NCBI GenBank assembly: GCA_016215405.1
Contig: JACRJQ010000008.1
Span: forward strand, 124,898-188,897
Source of the DNA: Candidatus Tayloriibacteriota bacterium
GTDB taxonomy: Bacteria > Patescibacteriota > Minisyncoccia > Phycocordibacterales > UBA6065
Direction: 5' to 3'
Length of the DNA stretch: 64,000 nt
Numbering within the stretch: position 1 is the stretch's first letter; the number at the start of each line of letters is the position of its first letter. The notes beneath the pieces are model-generated. The model was not told the origin of the DNA. It did not search any database and was given only the letters and a program-made list of their open reading frames with translations. The position numbers and the translations under genes are program-made. Below are positions 6,671 to 59,119 of this stretch, in pieces.

Positions 6671-6692
6671 GTTTACGAGAAGAGGGATGCTA

Positions 6693-6835: not shown

Positions 6836-6856
6836 GAGAAATGGTAAAATCAATCC

Positions 6857-11898: not shown

Positions 11899-12999
11899 CT
11901 ATCGATTCATCGGCATCACCAGATAGGTGAACGATTTGTCCGAGACGCCTCGCATCACGAGAGGCTTATTCGACCCGCTGATGGAGAGAGATATCGAGTC
12001 GGAGTCGATCGATTGGAAGCAGTCCGAGATATATTTATGGTTGAAGTTTATCTCCACATCCTCGCCCGATACAGAAGAGTCGATAGCGTTGGTATACTCG
12101 CCCACATCGCTATTCTTTGTCGCGATGACGAAGTTCTTCTTCGAAGGCAGAGCCTTCACGTTGACCTGATTGAACTTATCGGAAAAGACGTGAGAGGTCT
12201 TGAGAGAATCGACGAGGTCCTGCTTGAGGACGACCACCTCCGTGACGAACGCCTTCGGGATGATCTGCCTGTAGTCGGGGAAGGTTGCGTCTATGACTCG
12301 CGACATGAGGTAGATATCCTTTCCTTCGAAGGCGATCTGATTCCTATCGAAATAGACCTTTATGTCCTCGGTGAGGCCGTCGAGGGTTCTTATGACGTCG
12401 CTTACGTTCTTTGCTGGGATAATGACCGAAGGAAAATCTACGGAATCTTTTATCTTGACCCTCTTCTCGGCGAGCCTAAACGAGTCCGTCGATACGAAAA
12501 CCAAGTCAGACCCCTCCTTGTAGACGTATACAGAGGAGAGCTCGGGCTTTACCGTCGATACAGAAGCGCTGTATACGACCGATTTGAACCCTTTGACGAG
12601 AAGGCGAGGATTGATCTCGATCGTCCTCTGGCTATCTATCTTCGGTATCGCTGGAAAATCATCGGGAGAATATGTCTTGATGAGAGTGGTGTTCGCCGAG
12701 GTAGAGACGAGGACGTTGCCCTCTTTCGATTCGAGGATTATATTCTTCTCTTTCGGAAGGCCGGAAAGAAGGGATGTGAGGACTGCGCCGTGAATCGCGA
12801 CCTCGCCCTCTGTATCCACCTTCGCCGGTATCTTTATCTCTATGCCGCAGTCGAGGTTCGTCGCCCGTACCGTAAGCGAATTCTTCGATGCGCGCAGATC
12901 GACGCACGAGAGTATCGGTAATGAGAGGTTTTTAGAGGTCAGCCTGTCTGCTTTCGTTATAGCGTCTATAAGCTTGTCTTTGATGCATTCGATTTTCAT
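11899..12999 (-). CDS. dnaN: DNA polymerase III beta sliding clamp
   Basis: 366 aa; MKIECIKDKLIDAI...LSLPILSCV... three-domain clamp; adjacent to dnaA. Confidence 0.9.
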   Translation of the reverse strand: MKIECIKDKLIDAITKADRLTSKNLSLPILSCVDLRASKNSLTVRATNLDCGIEIKIPAKVDTEGEVAIHGAVLTSLLSGLPKEKNIILESKEGNVLVSTSANTTLIKTYSPDDFPAIPKIDSQRTIEINPRLLVKGFKSVVYSASVSTVKPELSSVYVYKEGSDLVFVSTDSFRLAEKRVKIKDSVDFPSVIIPAKNVSDVIRTLDGLTEDIKVYFDRNQIAFEGKDIYLMSRVIDATFPDYRQIIPKAFVTEVVVLKQDLVDSLKTSHVFSDKFNQVNVKALPSKKNFVIATKNSDVGEYTNAIDSSVSGEDVEINFNHKYISDCFQSIDSDSISLSISGSNKPLVMRGVSDKSFTYLVMPMNR

Positions 13000-14891: not shown

Positions 14892-15215
14892 ATGCTCCCG
14901 AAGGCGAAACGCCTCACGACGGAGGATGTCGGTTCGCTCGATACTGGAAGAAGCGTCTTCGGGACGCTTCTTTCTTTGAGGCTGAGGCCGTCTAAGGCCC
15001 TTAAATGCTCGGTTTCGGTATCGAAGAAGGTGGCGCCGAAGGCGGTAGACAGGAATCGCGCTCGACGAAGGGCGTACGCGGCGGCAGAGAAGGCCCTCAG
15101 CGCCGTGAAGTCGCCAGCTTTCATGCTCATCATGCTCAAAAAGGAAGCGCTTGCCGCGTCCGTCGAAGATATCGCCGCTGAGATCTCTTCCTTGCTCGAA
15201 AGGGCCGGTTTGTAG
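14892..15215 (+). CDS. rnpA: RNase P protein component
   Basis: 107 aa; LPKAKRLT... and the basic motif KKVAPKAVDRNRARR; sits in the canonical rpmH-rnpA-yidC order. Confidence 0.8.
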   Translation: MLPKAKRLTTEDVGSLDTGRSVFGTLLSLRLRPSKALKCSVSVSKKVAPKAVDRNRARRRAYAAAEKALSAVKSPAFMLIMLKKEALAASVEDIAAEISSLLERAGL

Positions 15216-15245: not shown

Positions 15246-16007
15246 ATGCGTTACATCTACAATAGCTTCATTTACGAGCCCCTCTATAACGGCCTTATAA
15301 TCCTCGTCGACCTCCTCAAAAGCCTCTCGTGGGTCGATGCCGGCATCATAATCATCCTTTTCACGATCATCGTTAAGCTCGTCCTCTTCCCTCTTTCGAA
15401 GAAGGCCGTCCGTACCCAGGCTGTAATGAAGCTCGTCGAGCCGGAGCTCGCCGCTCTTAAAGAGAAGTATAAGGGGGACAAGCAGGCCCAGGCGGTCCAT
15501 ATCATGAATTTCTACAAGGAGAAGGGCATAAACCCCTTCTCGAGCATCTTCCTCCTCTTTATCCAGCTCCCGATAATATTCGCGCTCTATAAGGTCTTCT
15601 ACGCCACAGGCTTCACTTCGATCCATACAGAGCTCCTCTATTCGTTCGTCTCCGTTCCTCCCCTCCCGTCGCCTCTATTCCTCGGTATTCTCGATGTCAC
15701 GGAGAAGAGCGCCGTCCTCGCCGTCCTCGCGGCGGTCTCTCAGTATTTTCAGATAAAGCTCTCCGTTCCGGTATTGCCAAAGAAAACAGGAGGAGAAAGG
15801 AACTTCCAAGAGGATTTCGCGCGCAACATGCAGGTCCAGATGAAATACGTTCTGCCTGTGATGATCCTTTTCATCTCCTATCACGTTGCCGGCGCGCTCG
15901 CCCTCTACTGGATAACCTCGAACCTATTCACCATTGGCCAAGAGCTGGTGATCCGCAGGCAGCTCGAGCGAGAAAGGGTCGCGGCGAAGGCAGTCGTTAA
16001 GGCCTAA
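15246..16007 (+). CDS. yidC: membrane protein insertase YidC (short form)
   Basis: 253 aa polytopic protein; conserved YidC core ...FPLSKKAVRTQAVMKLVEPELAALKEKY... and ...FISYHVAGALALYWITSNLF. Confidence 0.85.
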   Translation: MRYIYNSFIYEPLYNGLIILVDLLKSLSWVDAGIIIILFTIIVKLVLFPLSKKAVRTQAVMKLVEPELAALKEKYKGDKQAQAVHIMNFYKEKGINPFSSIFLLFIQLPIIFALYKVFYATGFTSIHTELLYSFVSVPPLPSPLFLGILDVTEKSAVLAVLAAVSQYFQIKLSVPVLPKKTGGERNFQEDFARNMQVQMKYVLPVMILFISYHVAGALALYWITSNLFTIGQELVIRRQLERERVAAKAVVKA

Positions 16008-16076: not shown

Positions 16077-17309
16077 TTACGGCACCAGGGCGTATGCCCA
16101 CGGAGTCATATCCCTTTTGTTCCTGAATACGAGCATGGTCTCCTTCTCGTCGAGGCTCAGATCGAATATGTCCATCGAGACGCCAGCTTCGGAGAGAGGG
16201 TTGAATATTTCCTCGGTTACTCCTGTCGAAACATTTATTTTCCAGAAGCTGTCCTCAAAGGAGATCCTTCCTTTATACCAGTCATCCGGGTAGAGGCCTG
16301 ATTCGATGAATCGAGGGACGGCGCAGTAGATCGAGACTTTTTCTTTCGCGCTCCAGACGCATTTATCAGAGAGAGTGGAGACCCCTACGCCGAAGCTGTT
16401 TTCCTCTTTGACGTCTGCGACCGCAGAGGCGAGGCCGTCTGCCCCGTCTGAGCCTGAATAGAATACGAAGCTGCCATCGACGTTTCCGAGAGGCCTTAGA
16501 CCGAGGGTGCCGCCTATGACTTTGGTATATGCGCCGGTCGCGCTATCGAGGAGATATGCGCTGCCTCCGGATTTTCCGCTCGGCCGAGAATAGAGGGTGA
16601 TTGCCTTTGGCGATGACCATACAGCATCCCAATCTCCGAAGGTGGAGGAGAACACGACGGTCTTCTTCGAGCCGTTCATCTCAGACACTATGCCTTGCGC
16701 GCCAGCACCGGTCTCGTCGAGGTAGAAGGCTCGGTTCCCCTGTACGGACACGCTGGAAATGCCGTCCTGGAGGAAAAGCCCTTCAAGCGCAGCTTCTGGG
16801 GATGAGGTCGAGAGCTGGGCATAGAAGGTCCTCACTATCCCGTCTTTCAGATATCGGATAAGGAGCTTCGATCCGTCCTTGCTCCAGAGCGCCTCGTGTA
16901 TCTTCGGGAGAGTGGTGTTGGATATCTTGGTCGAGGAAGTCGTCTCGTCCGAGGTCTCGTAGATGTGGCCGGTCGCGCGTTCTACGTATCTCATGAACAC
17001 CGTCTCTCCCTTATCGAACGCGACGACGCCCGCCGAAGGAGAGGTCGAGAGCTGCCGAAGGCGAGGCTTTTCGGAGGAGCTTCCGCCACCAAGGTCGATG
17101 ACCAACCCTTCATCCCCTTCTTCGCCCTCGCCCGTACCGCCCGTCGCACCTCCCTGGCTTCCTGTCCCGCCCGGGAATAGCCCCCCCTGGACGTTCTCGC
17201 CCGTTTCTTCCGGTATGTTCGAGCTAGACCTGTTCCAGATGTACCAACCGACTATCGCGAATATGGCGAGGACCGCAATGACGAGTATTGTAAAGGTTTT
17301 CTTCGACAT
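16077..17309 (-). CDS. membrane-anchored hypothetical protein, possibly beta-propeller
   Basis: 410 aa; N-terminal TM helix, Gly-rich linker, then a repetitive beta-rich domain. Confidence 0.5.
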   Translation of the reverse strand: MSKKTFTILVIAVLAIFAIVGWYIWNRSSSNIPEETGENVQGGLFPGGTGSQGGATGGTGEGEEGDEGLVIDLGGGSSSEKPRLRQLSTSPSAGVVAFDKGETVFMRYVERATGHIYETSDETTSSTKISNTTLPKIHEALWSKDGSKLLIRYLKDGIVRTFYAQLSTSSPEAALEGLFLQDGISSVSVQGNRAFYLDETGAGAQGIVSEMNGSKKTVVFSSTFGDWDAVWSSPKAITLYSRPSGKSGGSAYLLDSATGAYTKVIGGTLGLRPLGNVDGSFVFYSGSDGADGLASAVADVKEENSFGVGVSTLSDKCVWSAKEKVSIYCAVPRFIESGLYPDDWYKGRISFEDSFWKINVSTGVTEEIFNPLSEAGVSMDIFDLSLDEKETMLVFRNKRDMTPWAYALVP

Positions 17310-17315
17310 ATAGGA

Positions 17316-18332
17316 TTAATTGTTACATCCGTTCTCGACTGTATAGCCGCGAGGGCATTTTTTGAGATTTTCGAGCCACTTATCATCCATTACTTTTAGT
17401 TGAGCGAGAGCGTATTGCCTGTATATTTCCGCAGCCGCGCTATCTGTGTTTCTTAACTCGGCATAATCTCGGCTCATCGTGGAAAGGAAATCGCCCCTTG
17501 TCTCTTGAAAAAGCCTCGGTCCGCTGTCTGATGCGACGGGATATTTTCCACTTTCTAAGCCTGATATTATTGCGGTTGTTCCAAGCGTGACGTTGGTCTT
17601 TGCCACGTTAAACTTAACAAGCACCTGCGCCTCTTTCGCGGCCAGGGGGTCCGTTATCTGGGAAGCAACGTTCTGCTGACTTTGGATTGTGTCCTGGGCG
17701 ATCTTCTGGGCCGCCGCGGTGTCGCCATTTTGTATGGCCTCGACGATCTTTTTGTCGATTTGCGCTTGCGAAGCGGCGATAGCAGCGACTTTCGGATCGC
17801 CCGTCGTCGAGCTGAGAGAGACTTTCTGTGCATTATTTAGAGCACTCTCATAGGCTTTGCCGAGAACGTTACTACCTGCCAACTCCCCTGCTTTTGGCGC
17901 CCCCAAGTCGAGATTGATATTCACGAGATCGGAGTTGATCGTCCGCAGTATGAGATACGAGGCGAGGAGAAGGAGGAGCCCCCAGAGAGCGCCTGTCCAT
18001 TTCTCCTTAGCGGCCGACTTTCCGGTTATCGCCTCCGTAGTCGCGTATTCTATGCCCGCCCAGATGATCATGCCCACAGCGAGCACCGCTGCGAGCCCTA
18101 TGGATACGCCGTATATGTTGGTTATCACCTTGATGGGGTCCACCGCCTTGGTCGGCTCGAACGCTCCAGGAAGGGTCGTGAGGGAGCAATATTTTCCGGA
18201 GCCGTCGGCCGCTTTGCCGTTCACGCAGGCTACTTGCGCCTCTGCGTATGCGAAACCTCCGAATATGGAGAGCGCGATGAGCGAGAGAGCGCTTGCCGCG
18301 AGAGCCTTCCTTAGGATGCGAGCGTATCTCAT
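17316..18332 (-). CDS. membrane protein of the T4SS-like operon (signal peptide + two hydrophobic helices; possible pilin-like component)
   Basis: 338 aa; N-terminal signal, hydrophobic segments IGLAAVLAVGMIIWAGIEY and WGLLLLLASYLIL, then a long low-complexity region. Confidence 0.45.
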   Translation of the reverse strand: MRYARILRKALAASALSLIALSIFGGFAYAEAQVACVNGKAADGSGKYCSLTTLPGAFEPTKAVDPIKVITNIYGVSIGLAAVLAVGMIIWAGIEYATTEAITGKSAAKEKWTGALWGLLLLLASYLILRTINSDLVNINLDLGAPKAGELAGSNVLGKAYESALNNAQKVSLSSTTGDPKVAAIAASQAQIDKKIVEAIQNGDTAAAQKIAQDTIQSQQNVASQITDPLAAKEAQVLVKFNVAKTNVTLGTTAIISGLESGKYPVASDSGPRLFQETRGDFLSTMSRDYAELRNTDSAAAEIYRQYALAQLKVMDDKWLENLKKCPRGYTVENGCNN

Positions 18333-19336
18333 TGATTTATAGTTATAGATCCCTGCGCGCCCTGGAGGAGCTTCGCGCGGTGCTGTACCACGAGGTTTAT
18401 GTCAGACCTGCCGCCCGTCCCTGATTTGCGCAAGACGATCTCGTTCCTGTCCTTAAAATCGGCGATGCTGCCGCCGTTCATCTTCCAATCGAAGCTCAGG
18501 AATCCGTCGAGCGGGTCGAGACCGGAGATATAGAAAGGCTCGGCGCGGAGCGTTATCTCTTCGGAGAGGAGATCGAACGAGTTTCGGAGAGCCTTCTCGT
18601 ACATAAGCCCATAGAGAGGGCTGTTCTCGTAGAAGACGATCTCAGGAAGGCTCGGTACCACTGTGGTGAACGCCGATCCGGCGAGGTTCTCTTTAGGCGA
18701 GGACACCTCGACCGTTATCTCCTCCCCTTCCCTCATGTAGCTCGTCTGGGAGGTGGTGAAAGAATCCCTCCCGAAGCCAGACGCGCTCCCCTGGACGGTA
18801 CCGTTCTTCTTCCAGGTGTATATAAGGTCTTTCGGGTTTATCCTTTTGCCGGACTGGTCGAAGAATTCGGGGATGGCGGTCACCTTAAAGGCGCCGTTAT
18901 AGGAATGCAGAGCTTTCCCTTCGTAGAAGGGCGGCACATACGTATCCGATTGCCAGAGTAAGGTGACGTCGGCGGGACGGAATAGCATGCCGTTCCTTAT
19001 CACTCCGAAGTCTGGAGTGCTCACCTCGATCGAGATCGAGGTCGCCGTGCCCGTCTTGCCGAGCTTGAGGCTTATCTCTTTGAGGCCTACCCCTTCGGCG
19101 TAGATCTCCCCGTTGACCGACCATTTAAATATCGCCTTGTTGAGGTCTGTGCTGTAGCTCTGCGCGGAAACGTAGATGGTCTGGTTCGGCCGAGGATATT
19201 CTGGCACGACGCTAAAGACGATGGGCTCGCTGATGCCCGGTATCGTCTGCGCGGAGACGCCGCTCGAGAGGGCCGAGGCGACCAAAAGAAGGGCTGCGAA
19301 AAGGGAGAGGATTGTGCCTTTTATGAAGCGCAACAT
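18329..19336 (-). CDS. secreted hypothetical protein of the T4SS-like operon
   Basis: 335 aa with an N-terminal signal peptide; 4-nt overlap with the downstream gene. Confidence 0.5.
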   Translation of the reverse strand: MLRFIKGTILSLFAALLLVASALSSGVSAQTIPGISEPIVFSVVPEYPRPNQTIYVSAQSYSTDLNKAIFKWSVNGEIYAEGVGLKEISLKLGKTGTATSISIEVSTPDFGVIRNGMLFRPADVTLLWQSDTYVPPFYEGKALHSYNGAFKVTAIPEFFDQSGKRINPKDLIYTWKKNGTVQGSASGFGRDSFTTSQTSYMREGEEITVEVSSPKENLAGSAFTTVVPSLPEIVFYENSPLYGLMYEKALRNSFDLLSEEITLRAEPFYISGLDPLDGFLSFDWKMNGGSIADFKDRNEIVLRKSGTGGRSDINLVVQHRAKLLQGAQGSITINQ

Positions 19337-19379
19337 GGATATATTGTATCACAAGGAAAAGCCGCGCAGGATGCGCGGC

Positions 19380-21185
19380 TTACTGCATATCTGCCTTCGC
19401 CTGCTTCATGGCGAGGACTTGGGAAGGGTCGGACGTTATTATCTGGTCTTCCGTATACGAGGCTATGATCTTGATCGCCACATGTTTGAGGCCCACGAAG
19501 AATATGCCTTCCCCGACATCGGATTCGAGAAGGAGGTATTTCTCTTCGTCTGTGAGGTTGAATACCTGCTGGAGCCTGTCGATCGACGAGGGCGACTGCT
19601 TGAGGAGGACTTGGATAGACGAGTTCGTGATGATAGGCAGGCCGTAGGGCGATTTGAGGAAGTCGTCGACGTCCTGGGTGATAGTCGCGACGCCGAGGTA
19701 GTATTTTCTCCCTCGCTTGGCGAGGCCGAGGAGGAACGACGCCGTGTCGTCCGATTTCATCATCCACCACGCCTCGTCGATGACGAGGAGGCGTTTCTTG
19801 AGGTTCTTCCTGATAGCGTTCCAGATATAGTGGGTGACGATATACATCGCGACCGGTTTGAGCTCTTCCTCCATGTCGCGTAGGGAGAACACGATGAACT
19901 TCGCGCCGATATCGACGTTCGTCGGCCTGTTGATGAAGCCCGACCACGTGCCTTTCGTATATTTCGTGAGGCGCTGGACGAGAGACTCCCCTCCTTCCAT
20001 GCCGGCGAGGACGAGCTCGAAATCGGAGAGGAGCGGCGGCTCTATCGCAGAGAAGTCCGAGTCTGGCGTGATGTCTTTGAGGGCGTACGTCTCGCTTATC
20101 GCCTTGTCGATGATGGCATCCTCCTCGGGGGTTAGGCCTCCCATCATGATCCTGAAGAGCCCTACGAGGTTTATGATGTTCGAGCGCAGCACGTCTGCTC
20201 CCGACTCGTCTTCGCGCGGGATAGGCAGATCGAACGGATTGATGTGGTGCTCCGAGTTGAGCGATATGTTGAAGTATTTTCCGCCGGTCGCCTCCGCGAG
20301 GAATTCGTATTCCCTCTCAGGGTCGATGACGATGACGTCGGTGTCGAACATGAGTGTTCGGAGTATCTCGAGCTTCGTGGTATAGGACTTTCCCGCGCCG
20401 GATTTGGCGAACGTGATCGAATTGTAGTTCTCGAGAGAGAAGCGGTCGAAGAGGACCAAAGACGAGTTATGGCGGTTGATGCCGTAGAGGATGCCCTTGT
20501 CGGAAGTGAGGTCGAACGAGATGAATGGGAAGAGCGACGAGAGGGGCGACGAGTTGAGCTTGGAATGCACCCCGAGCTCGTCGGAAGCGGTAGGAAGGTT
20601 AGATTTGTAGCCCTGTTCCTGCTGGAAGAGCGCCGGCTTTACATAGACAAGCTTTGATTCGAGGATGGATTTTATCTCCGATTCGGTCTTGTCGAGCTCC
20701 TGCTCGTTCTCGCCGTAGATGGAAAGGTATACCCCGACGTCGAAGAGCTTCTCTTGGGCCTGCTGGAGCTGATCGCGCAGCTGCTCGAGGTCCTGATACG
20801 CCGTGTCGAGCATCGGGTCGCGGACGAGGCCCTTCTGCTCGCGTATCGATATCTGGCTCTGCACCTCCGCCACTTTCTTTTGGAATTGCCTGAGGACCTT
20901 CGCGGTCTCTATCGGGTGGATGAATATCGAGATGTTGAATACCTTGTCGAGGTTTATGATGGGCGCGAACCAGCTCTCGGAGAGGAAGCGCGGATATGAG
21001 ATGACGAAGAACGATCGAACGATCTTATCGCCGAGGGAGAGCTCTCGCGGGGATATCTTGAGTGCGGACGGAGCGATCACGTCTTTGAGCTCGAGGACGC
21101 CGGCTTCGTATATCTCCTGCGGGAGGATAGGCGCTATTGATGCCCTGTTCCCGTCCTTTTTCTTCATAAAGTCGAAAAGTCCCAT
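19380..21185 (-). CDS. virB4: VirB4/TrbE-family conjugative/type IV secretion ATPase
   Basis: 601 aa; Walker A FAKSGAGKS and Walker B LLVIDEAWWM, characteristic of VirB4. Confidence 0.85.
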   Translation of the reverse strand: MGLFDFMKKKDGNRASIAPILPQEIYEAGVLELKDVIAPSALKISPRELSLGDKIVRSFFVISYPRFLSESWFAPIINLDKVFNISIFIHPIETAKVLRQFQKKVAEVQSQISIREQKGLVRDPMLDTAYQDLEQLRDQLQQAQEKLFDVGVYLSIYGENEQELDKTESEIKSILESKLVYVKPALFQQEQGYKSNLPTASDELGVHSKLNSSPLSSLFPFISFDLTSDKGILYGINRHNSSLVLFDRFSLENYNSITFAKSGAGKSYTTKLEILRTLMFDTDVIVIDPEREYEFLAEATGGKYFNISLNSEHHINPFDLPIPREDESGADVLRSNIINLVGLFRIMMGGLTPEEDAIIDKAISETYALKDITPDSDFSAIEPPLLSDFELVLAGMEGGESLVQRLTKYTKGTWSGFINRPTNVDIGAKFIVFSLRDMEEELKPVAMYIVTHYIWNAIRKNLKKRLLVIDEAWWMMKSDDTASFLLGLAKRGRKYYLGVATITQDVDDFLKSPYGLPIITNSSIQVLLKQSPSSIDRLQQVFNLTDEEKYLLLESDVGEGIFFVGLKHVAIKIIASYTEDQIITSDPSQVLAMKQAKADMQ

Positions 21186-21189
21186 AGGT

Positions 21190-21825
21190 TTAATTTAGAG
21201 GGATAGGCTTCTCCGTGTCTCCGGGATTGAATATCTTGTAGAAGAGCTCGACGATCTCTTCGGTTCCGAGCTCGACCGACCTGATGCCGCAGCGGACGAG
21301 GCCTTGAGTGACCACCCCCACCCTCTGCTCGAGCTGGCTTCTGTGCTCTTCGAAGAGCTCGATCCTCTTTTCGGCAGATTGAGCGTCGGTCCTTTTCGAG
21401 AAGACGTCGGTCACGCTCGATTTGTTGAGGGTCGCGGGAGAGTAGGGCACGACCACGAAGAACGTCTTGGTCATGATGTTGGAGTTCTCCGTGAAATTCT
21501 TGATGAATCCGATGTACTCGCGGGTCTGGATCTTGAGGAGGTCGGAGACCTGCTCTTTGAGCCTGTTCTCGAGGAGGGCGATGTAGGGCCTGATGTCGAG
21601 CTTTCTAGACTGTATGAATATCTGGATCGAGAAGTCGAGAGAGTTCACGAAATTCTGGAACTGCATGAGGATCGACTGCTGTTCGTCGGCTGATTTGAGC
21701 GCGAAGTTGAGCGAGGACGCCATGATGACGGCGCGAAGCGATCCGTCTTTGAGGACGACGATGCCTTGGCGTATCTCCTTTATAGGGACGAACTCCTGCG
21801 TCGTCTTGGCGTTAACGGCTGGCAT
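21190..21825 (-). CDS. hypothetical protein (T4SS-like operon)
   Basis: 211 aa, tightly packed between virB4 and the VirB3-like gene. Confidence 0.45.
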   Translation of the reverse strand: MPAVNAKTTQEFVPIKEIRQGIVVLKDGSLRAVIMASSLNFALKSADEQQSILMQFQNFVNSLDFSIQIFIQSRKLDIRPYIALLENRLKEQVSDLLKIQTREYIGFIKNFTENSNIMTKTFFVVVPYSPATLNKSSVTDVFSKRTDAQSAEKRIELFEEHRSQLEQRVGVVTQGLVRCGIRSVELGTEEIVELFYKIFNPGDTEKPIPLN

Positions 21826-21842
21826 GGATGAAGTATATCAGA

Positions 21843-22298
21843 TTAGATATTCGACCTGCCCTTCTGGCTCTGGACGGGATTCTGCGCCTGCTTGATGTCG
21901 AGAGACCACGTGAGATCCTTGAGCTTGGAGTCCGAGAGCTTCGGGACGTAGAAATCGTTAGTCGTCGCCTCTGCGGCCTGTTTCGCGATCACCTGCTTGT
22001 CGACCTTCTTCCAGATGTAGAGCTTGTTACCTATGTAATATCCCCAGGCGGCCTCGACGACGTTTATGAACGGCTTGTTGTTTATCTTGTAGAACGCCAG
22101 AGCGAGGGTGAATCCTACGATAGGAAGGATGAGGATGGCGCTTAGGAAGAGGTTGCCCGCAAAGGAATACACGAGGAACGAGAGCCCGGCGCCGCCGAGG
22201 AGGTATATGAACTGCCTGAGGGTGAGGGGGCCGAATATCTTGTCTTCAACCTCTATGAACTGGGGCACCTGGAATCGCATAGCGATATTATAGCGCAA
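21843..22298 (-). CDS. VirB3/PrgI-like small membrane protein
   Basis: 151 aa with two adjacent TM helices (LGGAGLSFLVYSFAGNLFLSAILILPIVGFTLALAF), directly upstream of virB4 as in Gram-positive T4SS. Confidence 0.5.
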   Translation of the reverse strand: MRYNIAMRFQVPQFIEVEDKIFGPLTLRQFIYLLGGAGLSFLVYSFAGNLFLSAILILPIVGFTLALAFYKINNKPFINVVEAAWGYYIGNKLYIWKKVDKQVIAKQAAEATTNDFYVPKLSDSKLKDLTWSLDIKQAQNPVQSQKGRSNI

Positions 22299-22324
22299 AA
22301 AACATCGCCCTTGCGGGCGATGTT

Positions 22325-22954
22325 CTAGGCGATAGGCTCTCTGTAAGGGTCCGCGGAGTATTTTGGCTTTGGCGGTTCGGGGACTGGGTGCTGTAGCGTC
22401 GGTTCGGGCTTTATCTGGGCCCTTTGGGCCGGGAGATTGACCGTTTCCGTGAGTTTCCCTGCTATGAATTCGTTGGCCACCGTCTTTTTCGATTCCTCGA
22501 GGACCTCTTTTGGTACCGCCGGGCCTCCGGTATCGACGGTTATAGGAGGCGTGGAAGGAGTCGGATTCTCGATTTCGGCGAGGAGGCTCTCTCGTTCGAG
22601 GTTCTCGAGTTTTGATTCTTGTGGCGTAGCCGACGCTTCGACCGGAGTACCTGCAGCGATATTTCGGAAAGGGAGGAATACGCTCTGATTGAGCTCATTC
22701 ACCACTCCGTTGAGGTCTTTTACCGACCCTCCGAGAGCCTTGCCTAATTCCCGCGGGAAGTCTGAGGTGTTCAGGAGGCCCGTGAGAGCGAGAAAGACAA
22801 GATCACCCATCTTCCCTATCCCATCGAGGAGGAGGCCGTGCCGGGTTCCGATGTCACGGAGAGAGGATGTGAAATCCACAGACGCGAGGAACTCCTTTTC
22901 CCTTTCAGAGAGCCTTTTGTACGAATATATTTTTTGTTCGTTGGTGAAATCCAT
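22325..22954 (-). CDS. hypothetical protein (T4SS-like operon)
   Basis: 209 aa soluble protein with a Pro-rich C-terminus. Confidence 0.45.
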   Translation of the reverse strand: MDFTNEQKIYSYKRLSEREKEFLASVDFTSSLRDIGTRHGLLLDGIGKMGDLVFLALTGLLNTSDFPRELGKALGGSVKDLNGVVNELNQSVFLPFRNIAAGTPVEASATPQESKLENLERESLLAEIENPTPSTPPITVDTGGPAVPKEVLEESKKTVANEFIAGKLTETVNLPAQRAQIKPEPTLQHPVPEPPKPKYSADPYREPIA

Positions 22955-22956
22955 CT

Positions 22957-25392
22957 CTAGAATGTTTTACCTACGGGATTGTCGCGGAACCACTCGATGA
23001 CCTTATCGACATTCTCTCTTACGTCTGGAGGTAGGGTCGCGGGAGCGTTCTGGATTCTGGTCTTGATCTCAGTCCTTTCGGCAGAGCCGAGCTCGTCGAG
23101 CACTTTTCCGAGGGTCTTCGGAGTGAGGCGGTAGATGACCTCGGAGTGACTGAGCCTCTTATCTGGACCTCCTGGATCTCTCCAGCCGAGCTTTGCGATC
23201 TCGTTCTCCTCGAGCTCCTTGAGCTCGTCGCGAATCACAGCGACGTTTCCTAGAGATATCGCGTCATCGAGCTTCTTATAGCGGGCATCCTTCATCTTTT
23301 TCTTGGTCGTGCCGGTGAGCCTCGAGCTCTTCATGAGCTTGTCGAACTTGTCGTAATCCATGACATGAGGATTGACGAAGGATTCTTCGATGAGGGTGTC
23401 AGGAGTGAGATTCTCGAGCTCTTTGTCGGAGTGGCTCTTGATAGCCTTTTTGACCTCTTCTGCCGATGCTCTGTTCTTGACCGCGCCCGATACGTCAGCG
23501 AGCCGAGCGCCCCAGATCTTCGCTTTGTCCTCGTCGTTTTCCGCCTTATCGGCGAGATGCTCTGCCTGGCTCTGCGATATGACCTGGACGAATTGCTCGT
23601 TCTTCGTCGCTTTCTTGTCGAGCTTCTCGAGCTGCTTGTTGCCGAGCTTCTGCGCCTCTTCGGCGATCTTCGCTTTGGCATCTTTTACCGCATTGTTCGA
23701 GTTGTACCCTTGGAGCGCCGTCATGTATTGGGTCTGAGCGGTGCGGTATGCGGCCTCGCTCGCCGCTGTCGGATTCGCTTTCCATGCACTTTCCGCTTGA
23801 TCGAGGCCGACTTTAAGGGCCTTTGTGTTGTAGTGTCCAGGGCCTGCCATGACTTCGAGGACGCTTTCGATCTGTTTGAGTATCGCCTGATTCGCCTTTT
23901 CGATCTTGCGCTCCTCTGCCCACTCGGCGGTATCGGCCTTGATCGCTTTCGCGTCCTTGCCCTTGAGGTCGATTCCCTTGTCTCCGGTGGCGCCGCCTAC
24001 GATATTGGTCATCAGGTTGCCCACCTTGTTGTCCCCGATGCCGATGTTTCGTACGTCCCATGTCCCCGACTTCATCTTGTTCGTCGTCGCCTCCCCTGCA
24101 TCCTTGAGGGCCTTTCGAGGGTCTTTGACATACTTCATAACCTTAGGATCGGTCATCCATGGAGCGAGGTTCTCTTTTCCTGTCTTCTTGAAAGCGTCCC
24201 AACCCTGACCTTTTTCTGCGGTAAGGGCCGCGCCGAGGCCTCGGCCTCCGGCTCGCAAGCCCATCATAAGGCCGCCCGTCGCGTACGTTCCTACGGCTCC
24301 TACAGCGAGCTTGCCGAGAGAGGACGCGAGGCCACCAAGGGCCGTCCCCATCTCGCCCGAGTTCTTCTTTGCGATGTTAAGCGTCGCTTTGAGGAGAAAG
24401 ATGATGAGGAAGTACTGGAAGTACTGCGATACGCTGATGCCCATGCTGTCGATCGCCTTGTCCTGGAGCATCTCGAGGCTGAGGTCTTGCAGGCTATTTA
24501 TGAATTGGAGCGATATATAGAGCATGAGAAGGAACGCGACCGGGAATATTGCGGCGCTCGAGAGCTCCTTCCACCACTTTTTCGAGTACTCGCTTATCTG
24601 AGGCAAGACGCTGCCCATGAATCCTATAGGCGAGAAGACCATGAGGAAGAGTATCGTCACGCTTCGGGCGATGAAGAGCACGGCGCAGTACATGAATATG
24701 TATGTCGCGATGGAGACGACGGTGAGGCGCAGTATCCCGGCTATGAAGCCCTTGCTCGGATCGGTAAGGTCTGCGGGATTCTTTCCCACCCCGTTCGCGT
24801 TCTCTTTGGCGTTTCCGAGCCAGAACTGCATGACGCCGAGCCTCGTCGCGATGAGGCCCGAGAGGCTCGTCGGCTTGTTCTGATCCTGGCTATTGACGAC
24901 GAGGGTCTTCTGGATGCCTCCGTAGAGCCAGTTGCCGAAGACGTTCGAGACATCGACGAGGGTCTTGGTGAAGAAGAGGCTGAAGTTTATGAGAAGGGCG
25001 GCGATGACGACGTTCTTGAGCATGTTCATCGTGCCAAACCTCGTGCCGTTCACTATAGTGCCGAGGCTTATCCAGATGAGGATGAATATGAAGAATATGT
25101 TCGCGATGTCGCGGATGATGACCCAGCCGAGGTTTATCGCCGGAGAGAGGCTGAATATGTAAGCCGTGTGGAGACCGAACTGGATCGAGGTGTCCATGAT
25201 CATGCCTGCGAGGTACATGAAGAAGGACGAGAGCGGGAGTATGAGGATCTCGACCGGCCATATGAAGAATCGGCCTATCGCGCTCGTCGCGATATCTATG
25301 AACTGCGCATGCGCGATCTGCGGCACTACGAAGACCAGCCCTGCGAGGGCGATGAGAGGGAGCGCCGGTCTAAGGTTTATGGATCGCCGCAT
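22957..25392 (-). CDS. VirB6/TrbL-like polytopic membrane protein with a large hydrophilic C-terminal domain
   Basis: 811 aa; signal peptide, at least 6 TM helices in the N-terminal half, long charged coiled-coil-like tail. Confidence 0.6.
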   Translation of the reverse strand: MRRSINLRPALPLIALAGLVFVVPQIAHAQFIDIATSAIGRFFIWPVEILILPLSSFFMYLAGMIMDTSIQFGLHTAYIFSLSPAINLGWVIIRDIANIFFIFILIWISLGTIVNGTRFGTMNMLKNVVIAALLINFSLFFTKTLVDVSNVFGNWLYGGIQKTLVVNSQDQNKPTSLSGLIATRLGVMQFWLGNAKENANGVGKNPADLTDPSKGFIAGILRLTVVSIATYIFMYCAVLFIARSVTILFLMVFSPIGFMGSVLPQISEYSKKWWKELSSAAIFPVAFLLMLYISLQFINSLQDLSLEMLQDKAIDSMGISVSQYFQYFLIIFLLKATLNIAKKNSGEMGTALGGLASSLGKLAVGAVGTYATGGLMMGLRAGGRGLGAALTAEKGQGWDAFKKTGKENLAPWMTDPKVMKYVKDPRKALKDAGEATTNKMKSGTWDVRNIGIGDNKVGNLMTNIVGGATGDKGIDLKGKDAKAIKADTAEWAEERKIEKANQAILKQIESVLEVMAGPGHYNTKALKVGLDQAESAWKANPTAASEAAYRTAQTQYMTALQGYNSNNAVKDAKAKIAEEAQKLGNKQLEKLDKKATKNEQFVQVISQSQAEHLADKAENDEDKAKIWGARLADVSGAVKNRASAEEVKKAIKSHSDKELENLTPDTLIEESFVNPHVMDYDKFDKLMKSSRLTGTTKKKMKDARYKKLDDAISLGNVAVIRDELKELEENEIAKLGWRDPGGPDKRLSHSEVIYRLTPKTLGKVLDELGSAERTEIKTRIQNAPATLPPDVRENVDKVIEWFRDNPVGKTF

Positions 25393-25399
25393 TTAGTAT

Positions 25400-27799
25400 C
25401 TATTGTACTACGAAGTTGCCCGTCGCGGTCTTAAGGACGGTGCCGAACTTATCCTCAACCGTGGTTTCGATGGTATAGGTCCCAGCCGGAGCGCCGACCT
25501 TTATGCTCTGGGCCTTTTGCCTGAAGAGATAGTATTTGGCCGGATTGCTCTGGGTTACCCGCGAGAGCTCGAAGGAGCCCGAATCGTTCTCCGGCGATAT
25601 CGCGAATATCGAGATCTGCTCGCCTTCCCTACCGTACGCGAAGTCCATGGTCGAGAATACCGATAGGTACGATACCCTAGAGCCGTTTCGCTTGATGTTC
25701 GATTTTATGGTGAGCTCGTTACCAGAAGATATCGGCTTTTCTGCCGTAAGGCGGAGCTCGTAGCCCTGAGAAGAGCCGTTCGCTATCGAAGACGTCGGCG
25801 AGGAAGTAAGCCATGCGAGAGTGCTCGTCGCTGTTCGGCCATCGTCTTGTACGGTCGACGAGGATCCGGATGAAGACGACCCCGACCCGCCCGAGATAGG
25901 GGTAGTCGAGCCGACGGAGACGTTACCGATCACTTCGACCTCGATGAGCTCGAGAGGGTGATAGCAGCTCTCGTACTCTCGCTCGCCTCGGAATTCGAAG
26001 GTGACGCGGCATTGGTCGTCGAGCTGGCCCTGCTTCTCTATCCTCACATACCTCCTCGTCTGCCCGACCGGTACGATCGTCGGATTAGGGCTCGAATCTG
26101 CCGGCGAGAGCGAGTCGGATGCCCATGCGTTCTGAGAGGCTCCGTCGGACGCGACGACGCGGATAGATCCCAAGGTCTCTGAGGCGGGCTTGTTCGCGAC
26201 GCGCCAGATGCGCACTTCTTTTATGGCTTTGGCCGCGCCGAGGTCTACTTCCCACCATGGGTTCTCTTCCTCTGCGCTTATCGCCGGTTGATTATATTGG
26301 GTGACGTTACCGTCTTTGTTCCCGTTCACGGCGTTGTTCGCAGAACCGCCTCCGAAGCTCGATTGGGATGCGGGCTTGAGGAGAGCGTAATTCTGCTCGG
26401 TCGCCTCTTCTGATGAGAAATTATCGCTGATGAGCTCTTGCTGGGCCTGCTGCTGGGCGACCGCCTTGTTAGTCGCTATATCGGTCGCCTTATAGATGTC
26501 TTGGACCCCGGCGTCGTTCTGGACGAGGTCGGCGGCCGCATCGAAGTCTCGTACTTGGTAGTCTTCGGCCGGAGACGTCGCTCCGGTCGCTGTTGTCCCT
26601 CCGGCGCCGTAGTATTGGTTCTGGTATTTATTGTAATAGCTCTGGCTCGCCGAGCTCTTCTTGCTCATGCCGAGGAGGCCGTATGCGCCTTGAATCGCCT
26701 TTTGAGCGAGCTGGTTCATCGTCGCTGCGATGACGTCGTCGATCTCCTGCGCGACTGCGGCCTGGATGTCCCCTTGGGCCAAGGTGCTGTTGAGCTTCGA
26801 GGCGATGACGTATCCCGGAGTCTGGGTCACTTGCTTCTTGCAGATAGGCTTTTCGGAGGTCGAGAATATCGTCTGAGTCTTCGTGGCCGAGGTCGGCGCG
26901 GAGGTCTGTTTGCCGTCTAAGCTGTATGTCCCGAACGCGTCGGCGTTGAGGTTGGTCTTTTGGACCTGTACCCCTCCCTCCTTTCCGCCACTTTTCTTTA
27001 CAGCCTCCACTCTCGCTTTAGCTTCTGCTTCCGTCTCGAGGTCTTCCGCCGCGCACTTCCTCGGGATATCGAGGAAGCCTTGGCCCAAAGCGAGCTTGTT
27101 CTGCTTGATCCCCGCGGCGCGCGCAGCCCTCTCCGCAAGCTCGCCGTCGGCTATGACATAGGCGCCGTAGACGTTGTTCTGGGGCTCGGTCGTAAGGGAG
27201 AGCCAGTTGTCCCAGCCTTGTCCGCCGTTCGTCGCTATGTTGTTGCCGATCTGCGATGCCGTACATCGAGCTCTCTCTCGAAACGGCCTACTATATTTGA
27301 GGGCGAGGGCGATTCGGATCTGGAATCCGAAGTCGTTACAGAGGAATCCGAGCTCCGTGCCTTCGATGAAGGTGCCTACTGCCTGGTCGGCCGCGTCGAG
27401 GAGCGTTCCTTCGAAGTCGGTCACGAACGTAGGGCTGCCTTCGAAACCGGAATTCACCCAGTTGACTATGCTCGAGCCGATATTTCGGATGAGCGAAACG
27501 ATCATTATCTTTGCGAGAGGCTGGAGGATGCAGCTGTTGAAGGACGCCGAGTGGACGGCTGCGTTGGTCGACGTGTCCTGGAGCGTGTCGCCGCTGCCGT
27601 CAGAGACGCCGATGATCTCTTTCACCCATGCAGGCGTGCTCACTCCAATAGCGGTGAGGAGGCCGACGATACAGGCTCCGGCTTTGCCTTGACCTTGGGC
27701 ATATACAGGCTTAGGCGGCAGAGCGGCGAGGCTTGCGGGGATGACGAAAGAGAGAGCGAGTATCGATGCTGTTATCTTTGTGAGGACGCTCTTCTTCAT
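25400..27799 (-). CDS. large secreted protein with a discoidin (F5/8 type C)-like domain
   Basis: 799 aa; signal peptide. ...NAVNGNKDGNVTQYNQPAISAEEENPWWEVDLGAAKAIKEVRIWRV resembles a galactose-binding-like fold. C-terminal Ser/Gly-rich linker plus a beta domain. Confidence 0.55.
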   Translation of the reverse strand: MKKSVLTKITASILALSFVIPASLAALPPKPVYAQGQGKAGACIVGLLTAIGVSTPAWVKEIIGVSDGSGDTLQDTSTNAAVHSASFNSCILQPLAKIMIVSLIRNIGSSIVNWVNSGFEGSPTFVTDFEGTLLDAADQAVGTFIEGTELGFLCNDFGFQIRIALALKYSRPFRERARCTASQIGNNIATNGGQGWDNWLSLTTEPQNNVYGAYVIADGELAERAARAAGIKQNKLALGQGFLDIPRKCAAEDLETEAEAKARVEAVKKSGGKEGGVQVQKTNLNADAFGTYSLDGKQTSAPTSATKTQTIFSTSEKPICKKQVTQTPGYVIASKLNSTLAQGDIQAAVAQEIDDVIAATMNQLAQKAIQGAYGLLGMSKKSSASQSYYNKYQNQYYGAGGTTATGATSPAEDYQVRDFDAAADLVQNDAGVQDIYKATDIATNKAVAQQQAQQELISDNFSSEEATEQNYALLKPASQSSFGGGSANNAVNGNKDGNVTQYNQPAISAEEENPWWEVDLGAAKAIKEVRIWRVANKPASETLGSIRVVASDGASQNAWASDSLSPADSSPNPTIVPVGQTRRYVRIEKQGQLDDQCRVTFEFRGEREYESCYHPLELIEVEVIGNVSVGSTTPISGGSGSSSSGSSSTVQDDGRTATSTLAWLTSSPTSSIANGSSQGYELRLTAEKPISSGNELTIKSNIKRNGSRVSYLSVFSTMDFAYGREGEQISIFAISPENDSGSFELSRVTQSNPAKYYLFRQKAQSIKVGAPAGTYTIETTVEDKFGTVLKTATGNFVVQ

Positions 27800-27828
27800 G
27801 TAGGAGGATTAGCGACTTTAATTATACC

Positions 27829-28716
27829 CTATCGCGTAAGGACATATCCCCTTTCGTCTGAGGAGAACGTCACGTTCTTAGAGATGAAATAGCTCCGAAG
27901 CCCGAGGCTACCGGCGGTGAGGAGGTCGATGCCATCCTCGTAGGTTCGTATCTTGGTGAGCGAGGCTATCGGGTCCACGTCCATAGAGAGGATGCCTTCG
28001 ACCGCCCTCGAGAGGTAGGATATGCCGTTTATAAGGTCGATGTGGATCGATGCGGCATCCTGCGGTACCACCACCGATCTAAGCGACTCGGCGATATCTT
28101 GGTAGCGCTTCAGTATGAGTATGAGGCTCTCGACGTCGCCTTTTTCGCTCTCGTCGTTCATTATCCTCTCGAGGATGATGAGCTCTTGGTCTCCCGGCAC
28201 AGGTGGGACGGAAAGAGCCTTTCCTACCGCGTTTCCATAGGATTTAACGCGCGCGCGGCTCGTATCTGTCGTGACGGATATGTCGCTTGCTGTGATAAGG
28301 GGCATTTGCCCAGAATAGTCGTTCGAGAGGGCGAGCTCAGCGATCTTTTCGGCGGTGGCCTCGTCGATCTTTTCCCCGTTCTGTTTCGCCTGAGCATAGA
28401 GGGTGAAAAGCTCGCGAGCGAACCGGTCTGTCGCCGTGAGCTCTGCAGGCGTAGATGAGGCGTAAGCGTCCGGGTCGCCCGCCGTGCTCGTCGCAGAATC
28501 GATCCCTCCGAGGAGCTGGAGGCTTTTCTCCCAATCTATCTCGCCGTTCTTTATCGCCTCTTTGACGCTCGCATCGGCCAAGAGCCCGACCTGCTGTCTG
28601 AGATCTTCCTTTGGAGCGTTCTTTTGCGCGACCTTCATCGCTCCCGCTGCTCCAATCAAAAGGAGCGCGATGACGAGAGAGGCTCCGATCTTCGTCTTGA
28701 GAAACGCAAGAGGCAT
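27829..28716 (-). CDS. secreted/membrane-anchored hypothetical protein (first gene of the T4SS-like operon)
   Basis: Start MPLAFLKTKIGASLVIALLLIGAAGA is a signal/anchor. A TATAAT box lies immediately upstream on the minus strand. The longer ORF start at 29070 was rejected because it would overlap the divergent gene. Confidence 0.5.
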   Translation of the reverse strand: MPLAFLKTKIGASLVIALLLIGAAGAMKVAQKNAPKEDLRQQVGLLADASVKEAIKNGEIDWEKSLQLLGGIDSATSTAGDPDAYASSTPAELTATDRFARELFTLYAQAKQNGEKIDEATAEKIAELALSNDYSGQMPLITASDISVTTDTSRARVKSYGNAVGKALSVPPVPGDQELIILERIMNDESEKGDVESLILILKRYQDIAESLRSVVVPQDAASIHIDLINGISYLSRAVEGILSMDVDPIASLTKIRTYEDGIDLLTAGSLGLRSYFISKNVTFSSDERGYVLTR

Positions 28717-28764: not shown

Positions 28765-29910
28765 ATGAATACTAGGCGCGCCCTGGCTCTTGTCGTCCTT
28801 CTCCTCGTCGCGATCGGCATATTTCTCTTTTTCTGGCTCTTTAAAAAAGACGCTTCTAACCCTGTCGCTCCTTTTCCAGATAGCGGCGCGCCGATATTCG
28901 GCGAATCGGGAGGATCCCTCCCGCCAGCCAACCCTCCGGCAGAAGGAGGCGCCTCGGAAGTGATCCTGCCTCCTACGCCTGAAGCCGCTCTTATCGCCTC
29001 CTGCGATTCGCCTGTATCTATAGAGAGGAACGATTGCGTGAAAAAGGCCGCAGTAAAGGCCCAGAATCAATCTCTGTGCGCGGCCATCCTCGGGACCTTA
29101 GGCCAGACCGATTGTAGGAACGCCGTTTTGCGCACCGAAGATAAGATCGCAGATATCTCTATGGATGCGACCGTACGTTATGATTTCGAGTTCGCCGAAC
29201 CTGTCGTCGCTCCGGCCGAACCTGTCGATACGATATCGACGAGGCTCGCAGAGGCGTTCGAAAAGGCCGCCGACGCGGTGCGGGAGGCGAGGCAGAACCC
29301 GGACCCGAGATATACCGCGGACGGCTTCATCGCCCGATTCAGCTCGTCGTCGCCAATGCTCTATTCGTTCTCGAGGTCTCAGGCTTTGCCTGGAACCGAG
29401 CTCGTCGCCCAAGGCCTCGGCTTCACGAAGACCGGCAATGAGATCCATATCGGAAACTATGCCGTGTCGGGACTCGCGAGCGCCGACGGCATGACGATCA
29501 GGTTCACCCTTCCCGGCAGCATGGAATACGGGACGTACGATACCTGGGTGACGAACGAGAGAGGCTCGAGTAGGAACATGAGCCAGCCGATACGGCTCAC
29601 GATCACCGATTCGCCGCTCTCGCCGCCTACGATAACAGGCATCTCCCCTAGCGTTCCGACACTCTCTGACACCGTCACTGTCTATGGCAGCAATCTACGG
29701 GGGGCGCTCGGCATCTATACCTCTCTCGGCGTGCTTGAGAATGTCTATGCAGGAGACTCGTCTTTGACTTTCAAGATAAGCGACTTCCCCATGATCGAGA
29801 AGATAAAGGATATAAAGGGAGTGAAGGGGAATCTTGTCGCCGTCACCCTCATCGTCGGCACGCCGCAGGGATACAACCAGGAACCTTTCTTATTTAATGT
29901 ACAATTCTGA
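28765..29910 (+). CDS. membrane-anchored surface protein with a C-terminal IPT/TIG-like domain
   Basis: Start MNTRRALALVVLLLVAIGIFLFFWLF is a TM anchor; C-terminal PPTITGISPSVPTLSDTVTVYGSNL looks like an IPT fold. Divergent from the T4SS-like operon. Confidence 0.5.
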   Translation: MNTRRALALVVLLLVAIGIFLFFWLFKKDASNPVAPFPDSGAPIFGESGGSLPPANPPAEGGASEVILPPTPEAALIASCDSPVSIERNDCVKKAAVKAQNQSLCAAILGTLGQTDCRNAVLRTEDKIADISMDATVRYDFEFAEPVVAPAEPVDTISTRLAEAFEKAADAVREARQNPDPRYTADGFIARFSSSSPMLYSFSRSQALPGTELVAQGLGFTKTGNEIHIGNYAVSGLASADGMTIRFTLPGSMEYGTYDTWVTNERGSSRNMSQPIRLTITDSPLSPPTITGISPSVPTLSDTVTVYGSNLRGALGIYTSLGVLENVYAGDSSLTFKISDFPMIEKIKDIKGVKGNLVAVTLIVGTPQGYNQEPFLFNVQF

Positions 29911-33164: not shown

Positions 33165-33192
33165 TTGACGTAGGGTGGGCATCGGGTATAGT
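33165..33192 (+). promoter_or_regulatory. sigma70-like promoter (TTGACG-N16-TATAGT) for the LysM/M23 gene
   Basis: ttgacg at 33165-33170 and tatagt at 33187-33192. Confidence 0.3.
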
Positions 33193-33225
33193 TATGGGGC
33201 ACCGAAACGGCGGAACTCCCGAAAT

Positions 33226-59111: not shown

Positions 59112-59119
59112 AAGATACG

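Follow-up and report, generated by a model that had tools for sequence, protein, structure and literature searches.

Non-conjugative type IV secretion systems (T4SSs) were described in the ultra-small Patescibacteria between 2023 and 2025, and the locus analysed here, at 16077-28716 on the minus strand of a 64-kb stretch of DNA (the window; contig JACRJQ010000008.1), is a chromosomal T4SS/pilus operon of this previously described kind. Its VirB4 shows 100% identity to a protein from a metagenome-assembled genome of Candidatus Taylorbacteria (class Paceibacteria, Paceibacterota, candidate phyla radiation), from which the window is judged to stem. Passages of Quinonero-Coronel et al. (2025, Microb Genom; PMC12102498) report a monophyletic Patescibacteria VirB4 clade, nested in MPF-FATA and found in 2407 of 3035 genomes, in which TrsD, VirB3/PrgI, VirB6 and VirB2-like pilins adjoin virB4. 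According to the same passages, relaxases are rare in Patescibacteria (109 in 3035 genomes), coupling proteins (VirD4/T4CP) seldom lie nearby, and the T4SS of Paceibacteria adjoins dnaA, dnaN, rnpA and ksgA. In Southlakia epibionticum ML1, the cluster SEML1_0006-0019, which includes a pilin array and has no associated relaxase or T4CP, was found to be essential for epibiotic growth (Wang et al. 2023, Cell; PMC10633639). Southlakia from which comEC has been deleted loses competence yet stays viable, in contrast to the essential T4SS (PMC12857230, summarising PMC10633639), which argues that the essentiality of the T4SS is not due to DNA uptake. Published genetics accordingly gives the least support to DNA uptake, one of the functions offered in a preliminary description of the present locus. 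T4SS pilins and a galactose-binding-fold protein were also among the top-expressed unknown genes of cultured Paceibacterales (Kuroda et al. 2024; PMC10936435), and uptake of host RNA by a patescibacterium in culture, along with host-penetrating tubes, possibly T4SS pili, is described in a 2026 preprint (10.64898/2026.06.21.733656).

Compared with the Patescibacteria-clade T4SS as presented in passages of PMC12102498, nothing essential is different in the window: the same ~600-aa VirB4 stands next to TrsD-like, PrgI/VirB3 and putative VirB6-like proteins and a PF18895 pilin, in the same dnaA/dnaN/rnpA/ksgA setting and with no relaxase or T4CP nearby. The LysM protein listed there as VirB1, eight genes upstream of VirB3-TrsD-VirB4, corresponds to the LysM-M23 peptidase of the window, which could equally be an ordinary cell-division hydrolase. 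The counterparts of g295, the N-domain of disc_799, g209, g335 and g410 are left unannotated in those passages, and the passages concerned discuss neither a C-terminal extension of the pilin nor an internal terminator or promoter. The Southlakia ML1 cluster, which lies at the chromosome start, shares with the window a collinear core of VirB6-like protein (putative in the window), PrgI, TrsD-like protein (~290 aa in ML1) and VirB4 (612 aa), as well as PF18895 pilins and the lack of a relaxase and T4CP. The two differ in that ML1 has a six-gene pilin array, two VirB6-like proteins and an NTF2-like (VirB8-fold) protein, whereas the window has one extended pilin. Downstream of VirB4, ML1 encodes lysozyme-like and PEGA-domain proteins, while the window encodes a three-repeat protein, the pilin and a probable propeller, with an all-alpha anchor protein and a lectin protein upstream.

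More distant comparisons lead to the MPF-FATA systems of the CD1110/CD1112/CD1115 kind, such as that of Clostridium botulinum plasmid pCDC3875, which has a VirB4 core 33% identical to the one in the window and the same core order VirB6-PrgI-x-VirB4, the VirB6 of the window being putative. The plasmid encodes a full-length 797-aa VirB4, VirD4 and an SLT transglycosylase, is typed as MOBP by relaxase and has no pilin, in contrast to the window with its split VirB4, VirB2-like pilin, lack of DNA-transfer parts and fixed chromosomal position. VirB2-, VirB3-, VirB4- and possibly VirB6-type parts are also common to the Gram-negative VirB/VirD4 systems (MPF-T), whereas the window, with its monoderm envelope, has no VirB7/9/10 outer-membrane core and no VirB11 or VirD4, nor could a VirB5, VirB8 or VirB1 be recognised in the operon. 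The type of system is already known, and the locus is a clean, typical Paceibacteria example rather than a new kind of system. What is added here is the conservation of VirB4 (~83%) above that of DnaA (~61%), descriptions of five conserved accessory genes that lack a T4SS assignment, a hypervariable pilin extension and a likely internal terminator/promoter. We consider it probable that the operon is an MPF-FATA/CD1110-derived, non-conjugative T4SS, held at housekeeping level, for host interaction in an epibiotic lifestyle.

The VirB4 motor and its membrane partners

The 601-aa VirB4 carries Walker A (KSGAGKS) and Walker B (LLVIDEAWWMM) motifs and matched NCBIfam conju_CD1110 with 370.9 bits (cut-off 325) over model positions 185-733 of 752, so that the VirB4 call of the preliminary description, including its motifs, held in a profile search. 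Further matches were obtained to Pfam P-loop_TraG (E 2e-25) and, in the PDB profile search, to the VirB4 C-terminal domain 4AG5 (E 8e-41) and TrwK (E 7e-8). The best 120 homologues are ~600 aa long, 84-100% identical and derived from Paceibacterota, Parcubacteria and other Patescibacteria; the named records among them are all from Patescibacteria, bar one that is mislabelled. The nearest plasmid-borne VirB4s are CD1110-family proteins of Firmicutes and Actinobacteria with 28-36% identity. By these homologies the motor is a VirB4 of the Patescibacteria type, related to monoderm MPF-FATA VirB4, and conjugation machinery of monoderms (MPF-FATA, CD1110-like) is taken as the origin of the core genes as a whole.

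Compared with a normal VirB4, the 601-aa protein lacks the N-terminal ~180 residues. A homologue of this domain is encoded by the preceding 211-aa open reading frame (ORF), previously listed as hypothetical and here recognised as TrsD-like, which matched NCBIfam VirB4_plasma (positions 101-281, E 1.6e-11), TrsD (E 1.8e-6) and CD1110 (positions 2-119), and which is collinear (BLASTP E 4e-9) with aa 23-197 of the full-length 797-aa clostridial VirB4. The two genes are in different reading frames with a 4-nt gap between them. A frameshift or sequencing error was considered as the cause of the split and rejected, because the relatives all carry the same pair of ~213 and ~604 aa. The alignments thus identify a VirB4 motor divided over two genes, one for a TrsD-like N-domain and one for the core of 601 aa. 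The PrgI-like protein, with one strong transmembrane (TM) segment, matched Pfam PrgI (E 3.8e-11, 43.8 bits, cut-off 27), in agreement with the VirB3/PrgI-like call made earlier. As a separate observation, one related locus (L065, JBBTSQ010000032.1) has trsD, virB4 and prgI, in that order, on the strand opposite to the rest of the operon, through either a local rearrangement or an assembly artefact.

The weakest component call is that of the 811-aa protein, a putative "extended" VirB6-like protein with a signal/anchor segment, ~5-6 TM segments (aa ~34-298) and a variable hydrophilic tail of ~500 aa, only aa ~50-375 being conserved. The polytopic topology fits the VirB6/TrbL-like assignment of the preliminary description, as does the position upstream of PrgI, which is also that of the CD1112 VirB6 in pCDC3875; the match to Pfam TrbL (E 2.2e-3) is below cut-off. 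Among 23 orthologues, four matched TrbL at E<0.01, the best at 1.6e-4. In the PDB profile search, matches were confined to the coiled tail, and tblastn against plasmids returned a single match, to a "plasmid transfer protein" (E 0.2).

The 338-aa protein g338 has a signal peptide, a Y.LL.PLP motif and two TM helices (aa ~45-135) according to the alignment and TM scan, and is conserved over aa ~50-150 only. The window copy matched Pfam T4SS_pilin (PF18895) sub-threshold (E 1.3e-3), while 22 of 23 orthologues matched it with a best E of 2.6e-9, several above cut-off. What had been noted as a membrane protein with pilin-like two-helix topology is on this family evidence classified as a VirB2-like T4SS pilin. 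The ~200 C-terminal residues after TM helix 2 are hypervariable in length and sequence between species. Eight of 65 orthologues have as their tail a domain that contains Cys and in which H, D, E and HW are invariant (TGGTE..H ... D ... HWH). By this motif and by one weak Pfam match (E 2.6e-3) the domain resembles an M15/LAS zinc cell-wall peptidase; a PDB profile search with the tail gave no match.

Conservation and fixed position of the operon

Related loci were collected by a scan of one genome per species, in which at least 586 were found, and gene order and identity were assessed in the 42 that had full 10-kb flanks, from different Paceibacteria species of several candidate lineages. The synteny comparison, suggested in the preliminary description, gave a nearly invariant order throughout this set: uvrD-ksgA-[g295-disc-VirB6-(g209)-PrgI-TrsD-VirB4-g335-pilin-g410]-yidC-(rnpA)-dnaA-dnaN-pbp1. 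The genes g410, g335, VirB4, TrsD (length ~213 aa) and PrgI were each present in 42 of 42 loci.

Median identities to the window proteins in the same genomes were 83% for the VirB4 core, 66% for TrsD and 56% for PrgI, as compared with 61% for DnaA, 57% for UvrD, 50% for DnaN and 47% for YidC. Since the loci had been picked by VirB4 similarity, the VirB4 value is somewhat inflated, but its gap to DnaA is still large. The exported or variable proteins showed much lower values, with 36% for the pilin (alignable over aa ~50-150), 32% for g335, 31% for g410, 31% for disc_799 (aa ~75-375), 29% for the VirB6-like protein (aa ~50-375) and 27% for g295. By this measure the cytoplasmic motor is under housekeeping-level constraint, and the exported parts are fast-evolving; their low identity (27-36%) is the pattern expected for host-facing surfaces.

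In Pfam and NCBIfam scans of the ORFs across the 64 kb, neither a coupling protein (VirD4/T4CP) nor a relaxase or lytic transglycosylase was detected, in line with the preliminary description, which had reported none of the three. No flanking att-like direct repeats were found around the operon, and the GC content revealed no compositional island. The sole recombinase in the window is an XerC/D-like tyrosine recombinase 12 kb from the operon, from which it is separated by uvrD, comM, pnp and other housekeeping genes; the combination of att sites, integrase, relaxase and VirD4 beside the operon that would mark an ordinary integrated conjugative element (ICE) does not occur in the 64 kb. With a gene order that hardly varies among 42 other Paceibacteria species, the operon is, on comparative grounds, classed as not an ICE. 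The earlier view of a stripped-down, non-conjugative T4SS-like apparatus of small-genome episymbionts is borne out by the lack of mobility genes, the fixed position and the match to the literature.

Accessory proteins, transcription and surroundings

The first gene of the operon, g295, encodes an N-terminal membrane anchor followed by an extracellular all-alpha domain (aa ~90-295), for which no Pfam or NCBIfam match was obtained. The family is large, with 2064 clusters at 50% identity (E<=1e-3), and many relatives carry DxDxDG calcium-binding-type repeats before the conserved domain. The AlphaFold2 (AF2) model has a mean pLDDT of 87.8, reaching 96-98 over aa 90-295, and a Foldseek search of the PDB with this model returned nothing better than E 0.47. 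The protein was considered as the missing VirB8/PrgL and rejected, because the confident model is all-alpha and Foldseek gave no NTF2 or VirB8 match in the PDB. Next to a g295 homologue of ~28% identity on another contig (L083), the following gene is again a homologue of the disc_799 N-domain, and this adjacency in a distant homologue links the two proteins.

The 799-aa protein disc_799 consists of a Cys-rich N-domain (aa ~75-375), an F-type-lectin/discoidin-like domain (aa ~470-630) and an Ig-like beta-sandwich (aa ~650-799). The discoidin-domain secreted protein proposed earlier was recovered with Pfam F5_F8_type_C_2 (PF22633; E 6e-9, above cut-off) and by structure: the lectin and Ig-like domains were modelled with pLDDT >90, and Foldseek matched the lectin part to fucolectin, the lectinolysin lectin domain and SpX fucose-binding modules, with E values between 5e-10 and 1e-7 and a TM-score, normalised to the target, of ~0.8. 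The model places aa 470-630 in the F-type lectin/discoidin beta-sandwich fold, sugar binding being predicted only. The His/Arg/Arg triad, which we take to be the canonical fucose-binding one, did not by eye look conserved in this module. The lectin and Ig-like domains are present only in the closest relatives; it is the N-domain that is conserved across loci, with four Cys invariant in an alignment of 59 sequences. This N-domain was modelled at pLDDT 35-68 and gave no PDB profile match, and no homologue of disc_799 was found in plasmids. It was considered as a candidate VirB5- or VirB1-like domain, but the AF2 confidence was too low, and the sole signal came from DUF4141, which matched weakly at the N-terminus of five of ten short distant homologues.

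The remaining accessory proteins are g209, g335 and g410. Acidic and Pro-rich in composition, g209 matched no Pfam or NCBIfam family, was detected by tblastn in nine of the 42 loci only and, since it has no TM segment, is probably cytoplasmic. An N-terminal hydrophobic signal-like segment of g335 is followed by three homologous repeats of ~100 aa (hhalign probability 86-96%, E 1e-9 to 5e-6), for which no Pfam, NCBIfam or PDB match was found. The last protein, g410, begins with a TM anchor and a Gly-rich linker; its profile matched many TolB chains in the PDB (E 0.1-1.4) and aligned by hhalign with E. coli TolB at 65% probability (E 6e-5, 188 columns), and it probably, if tentatively, includes a TolB/PD40-like beta-propeller.

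Directly after the virB4 stop codon, within 19336-19382 (minus strand), lies a 10-bp GC hairpin with a T-rich tail, followed by TGATACAAT, an extended -10-like sequence that ends 6 nt before the g335 ATG. L001 and L002, the closest relatives, have the same hairpin and TGnTACAAT; L004, L005 and L029 have just the TGnTACAAT/TATAAT element. A putative terminator and promoter at this site likely form a boundary between two transcription units, so that g335, the pilin and g410 may have a transcript of their own, which could be leaderless.

In total the operon comprises ten tightly packed minus-strand genes over 12.6 kb (Table 1), with intergenic gaps in transcription order of 29, 7, 2, 26, 17, 4, 43, -4 and 6 nt. 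The preliminary description had listed nine of them, all of which were recovered with their coordinates; it had missed the tenth, g410, which belongs to the operon because it is syntenic in all 42 full-length related loci. It had also put forward the divergent IPT-domain protein as a candidate adhesin or substrate; this gene is present in only ten of the 42 loci and is thus no conserved component of the system. On the g295 side the neighbours are the IPT/TIG protein, ksgA, uvrD/pcrA, the LysM-M23 peptidase and comM. The GC and AT skews switch sign at ~12-16 kb of the window, consistent with a replication origin at dnaA. If oriC is the dnaA-rnpA intergenic region, as suggested by the skews, transcription of the operon would run origin-ward and head-on to the replication fork; its orientation is kept in related loci.

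Further observations concern the rest of the window. It also encodes a PilB-like type IV pilus ATPase (T2SSE and MshEN domains), PNPase, an NYN-domain protein and RNase Y, genes that may bear on the proposal of feeding on host RNA. Four consecutive large ORFs on the plus strand (1183, 430, 391 and 424 aa) possibly encode surface proteins, and Pfam gave no match for them except collagen-like repeats in the third. A 429-aa minus-strand ORF is spurious, the plus strand there encoding RuvB, YebC and RuvC. An Rfam scan of the window returned four tRNAs only.

Table 1. Coordinates of the operon, its surroundings and orthologues with a Cys-containing pilin tail (window positions unless a locus is named)
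Feature	Position	Strand	Length (aa)	Remarks
g295	27829-28716	-	295	From ATG at 28716; first operon gene
disc_799	25400-27799	-	799	Exported multidomain protein
VirB6-like	22957-25392	-	811	Polytopic membrane protein, putative
g209	22325-22954	-	209	
PrgI/VirB3-like	21843-22298	-	151	Likely start is ATG at 22280
TrsD-like	21190-21825	-	211	Detached VirB4 N-terminal domain
VirB4 ATPase core	19380-21185	-	601	
Terminator-like GC hairpin	19359-19381	-		Directly 3' of virB4 stop codon
g335	18329-19336	-	335	Three-repeat secreted protein
g338, VirB2-like pilin	17316-18332	-	338	4-nt overlap with g335
g338 C-terminal tail	17316-17930	-		Hypervariable
g410	16077-17309	-	410	Last operon gene, 6 nt from g338
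yidC	15246-16007			Flank on g410 side
rnpA	14892-15215			Flank on g410 side
dnaA	13244-14587			Flank on g410 side
dnaN	11899-12999			Flank on g410 side
IPT/TIG protein	28765-29910			Divergent from operon, g295 side
LysM-M23 peptidase	33175-34362	Opposite to operon		ksgA and uvrD in between
XerC/D-like recombinase	41119-42138			Sole recombinase in window
PilB-like ATPase and RNA-degrading enzyme set	2479-4161; 37753-39879; 40021-40653; 48016-49545			
RuvB	4917-5966	+		
Spurious ORF	5855-7144	-	429	
YebC	5996-6523	+		
RuvC	6857-7333	+		
Four large ORFs	55560-63124	+	1183, 430, 391, 424	
Pilin orthologue, L020	13029-13979			Cys-containing tail
Pilin orthologue, L032	13190-14104			Cys-containing tail
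Pilin orthologue, L036	10534-11400			Cys-containing tail
Pilin orthologue, L044	12286-13131			Cys-containing tail
Pilin orthologue, L048	12922-13770			Cys-containing tail
Pilin orthologue, L057	13287-14162			Cys-containing tail
Pilin orthologue, L071	13287-14174			Cys-containing tail
Pilin orthologue, L073	12891-13733			Cys-containing tail

Proposed function and its alternatives

In the host-interaction T4SS that we favour, PrgI/VirB3 would tether the VirB4 motor to the membrane, where the motor would act together with the large VirB6-like polytopic protein, extracting the pilin and polymerising it into a pilus or tube that crosses the monoderm envelope. Those accessory proteins that are exported, namely the all-alpha anchor, the Cys-rich protein with its lectin, the three-repeat protein and the probable anchored propeller, would make up the part that lies outside the cell and faces the host, and recognition of the host surface may come from the lectin module and the variable pilin tail. 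The apparatus would thereby move macromolecules between symbiont and host and would be needed for the epibiotic lifestyle. Several points weigh against this picture. The VirB6 assignment is sub-threshold, and an hhalign comparison of the VirB6-like family with the clostridial CD1112 VirB6 of pCDC3875 showed no similarity (probability 0.4%). The long C-terminal tail of the pilin is unlike the polymerising VirB2 proteins that are known, and g338 might serve as a membrane anchor instead of a pilus subunit. No VirB8-, VirB5- or VirB1-like protein was identified in the operon, g295 not being NTF2-like and the model of the disc_799 N-domain being of low confidence, and any channel architecture is therefore conjectural. 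A T4CP could lie outside the 64-kb window, as VirD4 homologues are located far from virB4 in most Patescibacteria genomes (passages of PMC12102498). Finally, essentiality is known for one saccharibacterium, Southlakia (PMC10633639), and for no Paceibacteria T4SS.

The same genes could in principle serve an import conduit, in which the pilus pierces the host envelope and VirB4 drives the uptake of host macromolecules (RNA, nucleotides, possibly DNA), resembling the archaeal Ced or Helicobacter ComB DNA-import systems. This is an unlikely explanation. The uptake of host RNA and the tubes, possibly T4SS pili, reported in the 2026 preprint would fit it, but the preprint itself leaves the uptake mechanism unresolved (10.64898/2026.06.21.733656). 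The window has no T4CP or relaxase, as an importer could, and the conservation of VirB4 is at housekeeping level. VirB4 also gave a weak, partial NCBIfam match to CedB, a protein of DNA import (E 9e-9 over 70 residues), which is confined to the generic P-loop region. PNPase, RNase Y and the NYN nuclease in the same window are ordinary housekeeping genes, and no T4SS is known to import RNA. Southlakia, moreover, can dispense with DNA uptake, for which it uses type IV pili and ComEC (PMC12857230). Less probable again is a role in adhesion only, with VirB4, VirB3 and VirB6 just assembling a VirB2-type pilus with lectin and variable domains and no translocation. The pilin gene, the lectin module and the hypervariable surface parts would suit such an adhesin, as would the lack in the window of a T4CP, the usual substrate receptor, and VirB4 alone powers pilus biogenesis in Gram-negative systems (passages of PMC12102498). 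Against this, Ptl and Brucella VirB secrete proteins without a T4CP (passages of the same article), type IV pili already serve adhesion in Patescibacteria, a PilB gene being present in the window and type IV pili being known from Saccharibacteria (PMC12206443), and a redundant adhesin would hardly seem to call for essentiality and so extreme a conservation of VirB4. Most of the probability beyond import and adhesion only, we infer, falls to translocation at the host interface, by export or with no direction specified.

That the operon is an ICE or its decaying remnant, with relaxase, T4CP and integrase located outside it or lost, is largely refuted and highly improbable. Its core genes do go back to monoderm conjugation systems, the window contains a tyrosine recombinase gene, and VirD4 homologues occur elsewhere in many Patescibacteria genomes (passages of PMC12102498), yet in 42 species of several candidate lineages the operon occupies one and the same place between ksgA and yidC/dnaA, all genes are intact and the core is more conserved than DnaA. 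Att-like repeats and a compositional island are both lacking around the operon, the recombinase is XerC/D-like and lies behind uvrD, comM, pnp and other housekeeping genes, and the passages of PMC12102498 count only 109 relaxases in 3035 genomes.

A more speculative proposal, to which we attach little confidence, is that g295, the Cys-rich N-domain of disc_799, g335, g410 and the tailed pilin form a new extracellular module that in Paceibacteria replaces the missing VirB5, VirB8, VirB1 and outer-membrane parts and makes of the conjugation-derived motor a host-piercing conduit drawing in host macromolecules, e.g. RNA. The pilin tail in that module would be variable or enzyme-bearing, and such a module, if real, would explain a VirB4 conservation above that of DnaA.

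For the host-interaction T4SS as favoured here, the ten-gene parts list separates firm from weak assignments, and the four or five conserved extracellular proteins suggest themselves as candidates for the part that contacts the host. A very large part of bacterial diversity belongs to the Patescibacteria, which live on other microbes, and their T4SS is the first that was shown to be essential for the bacterium carrying it.

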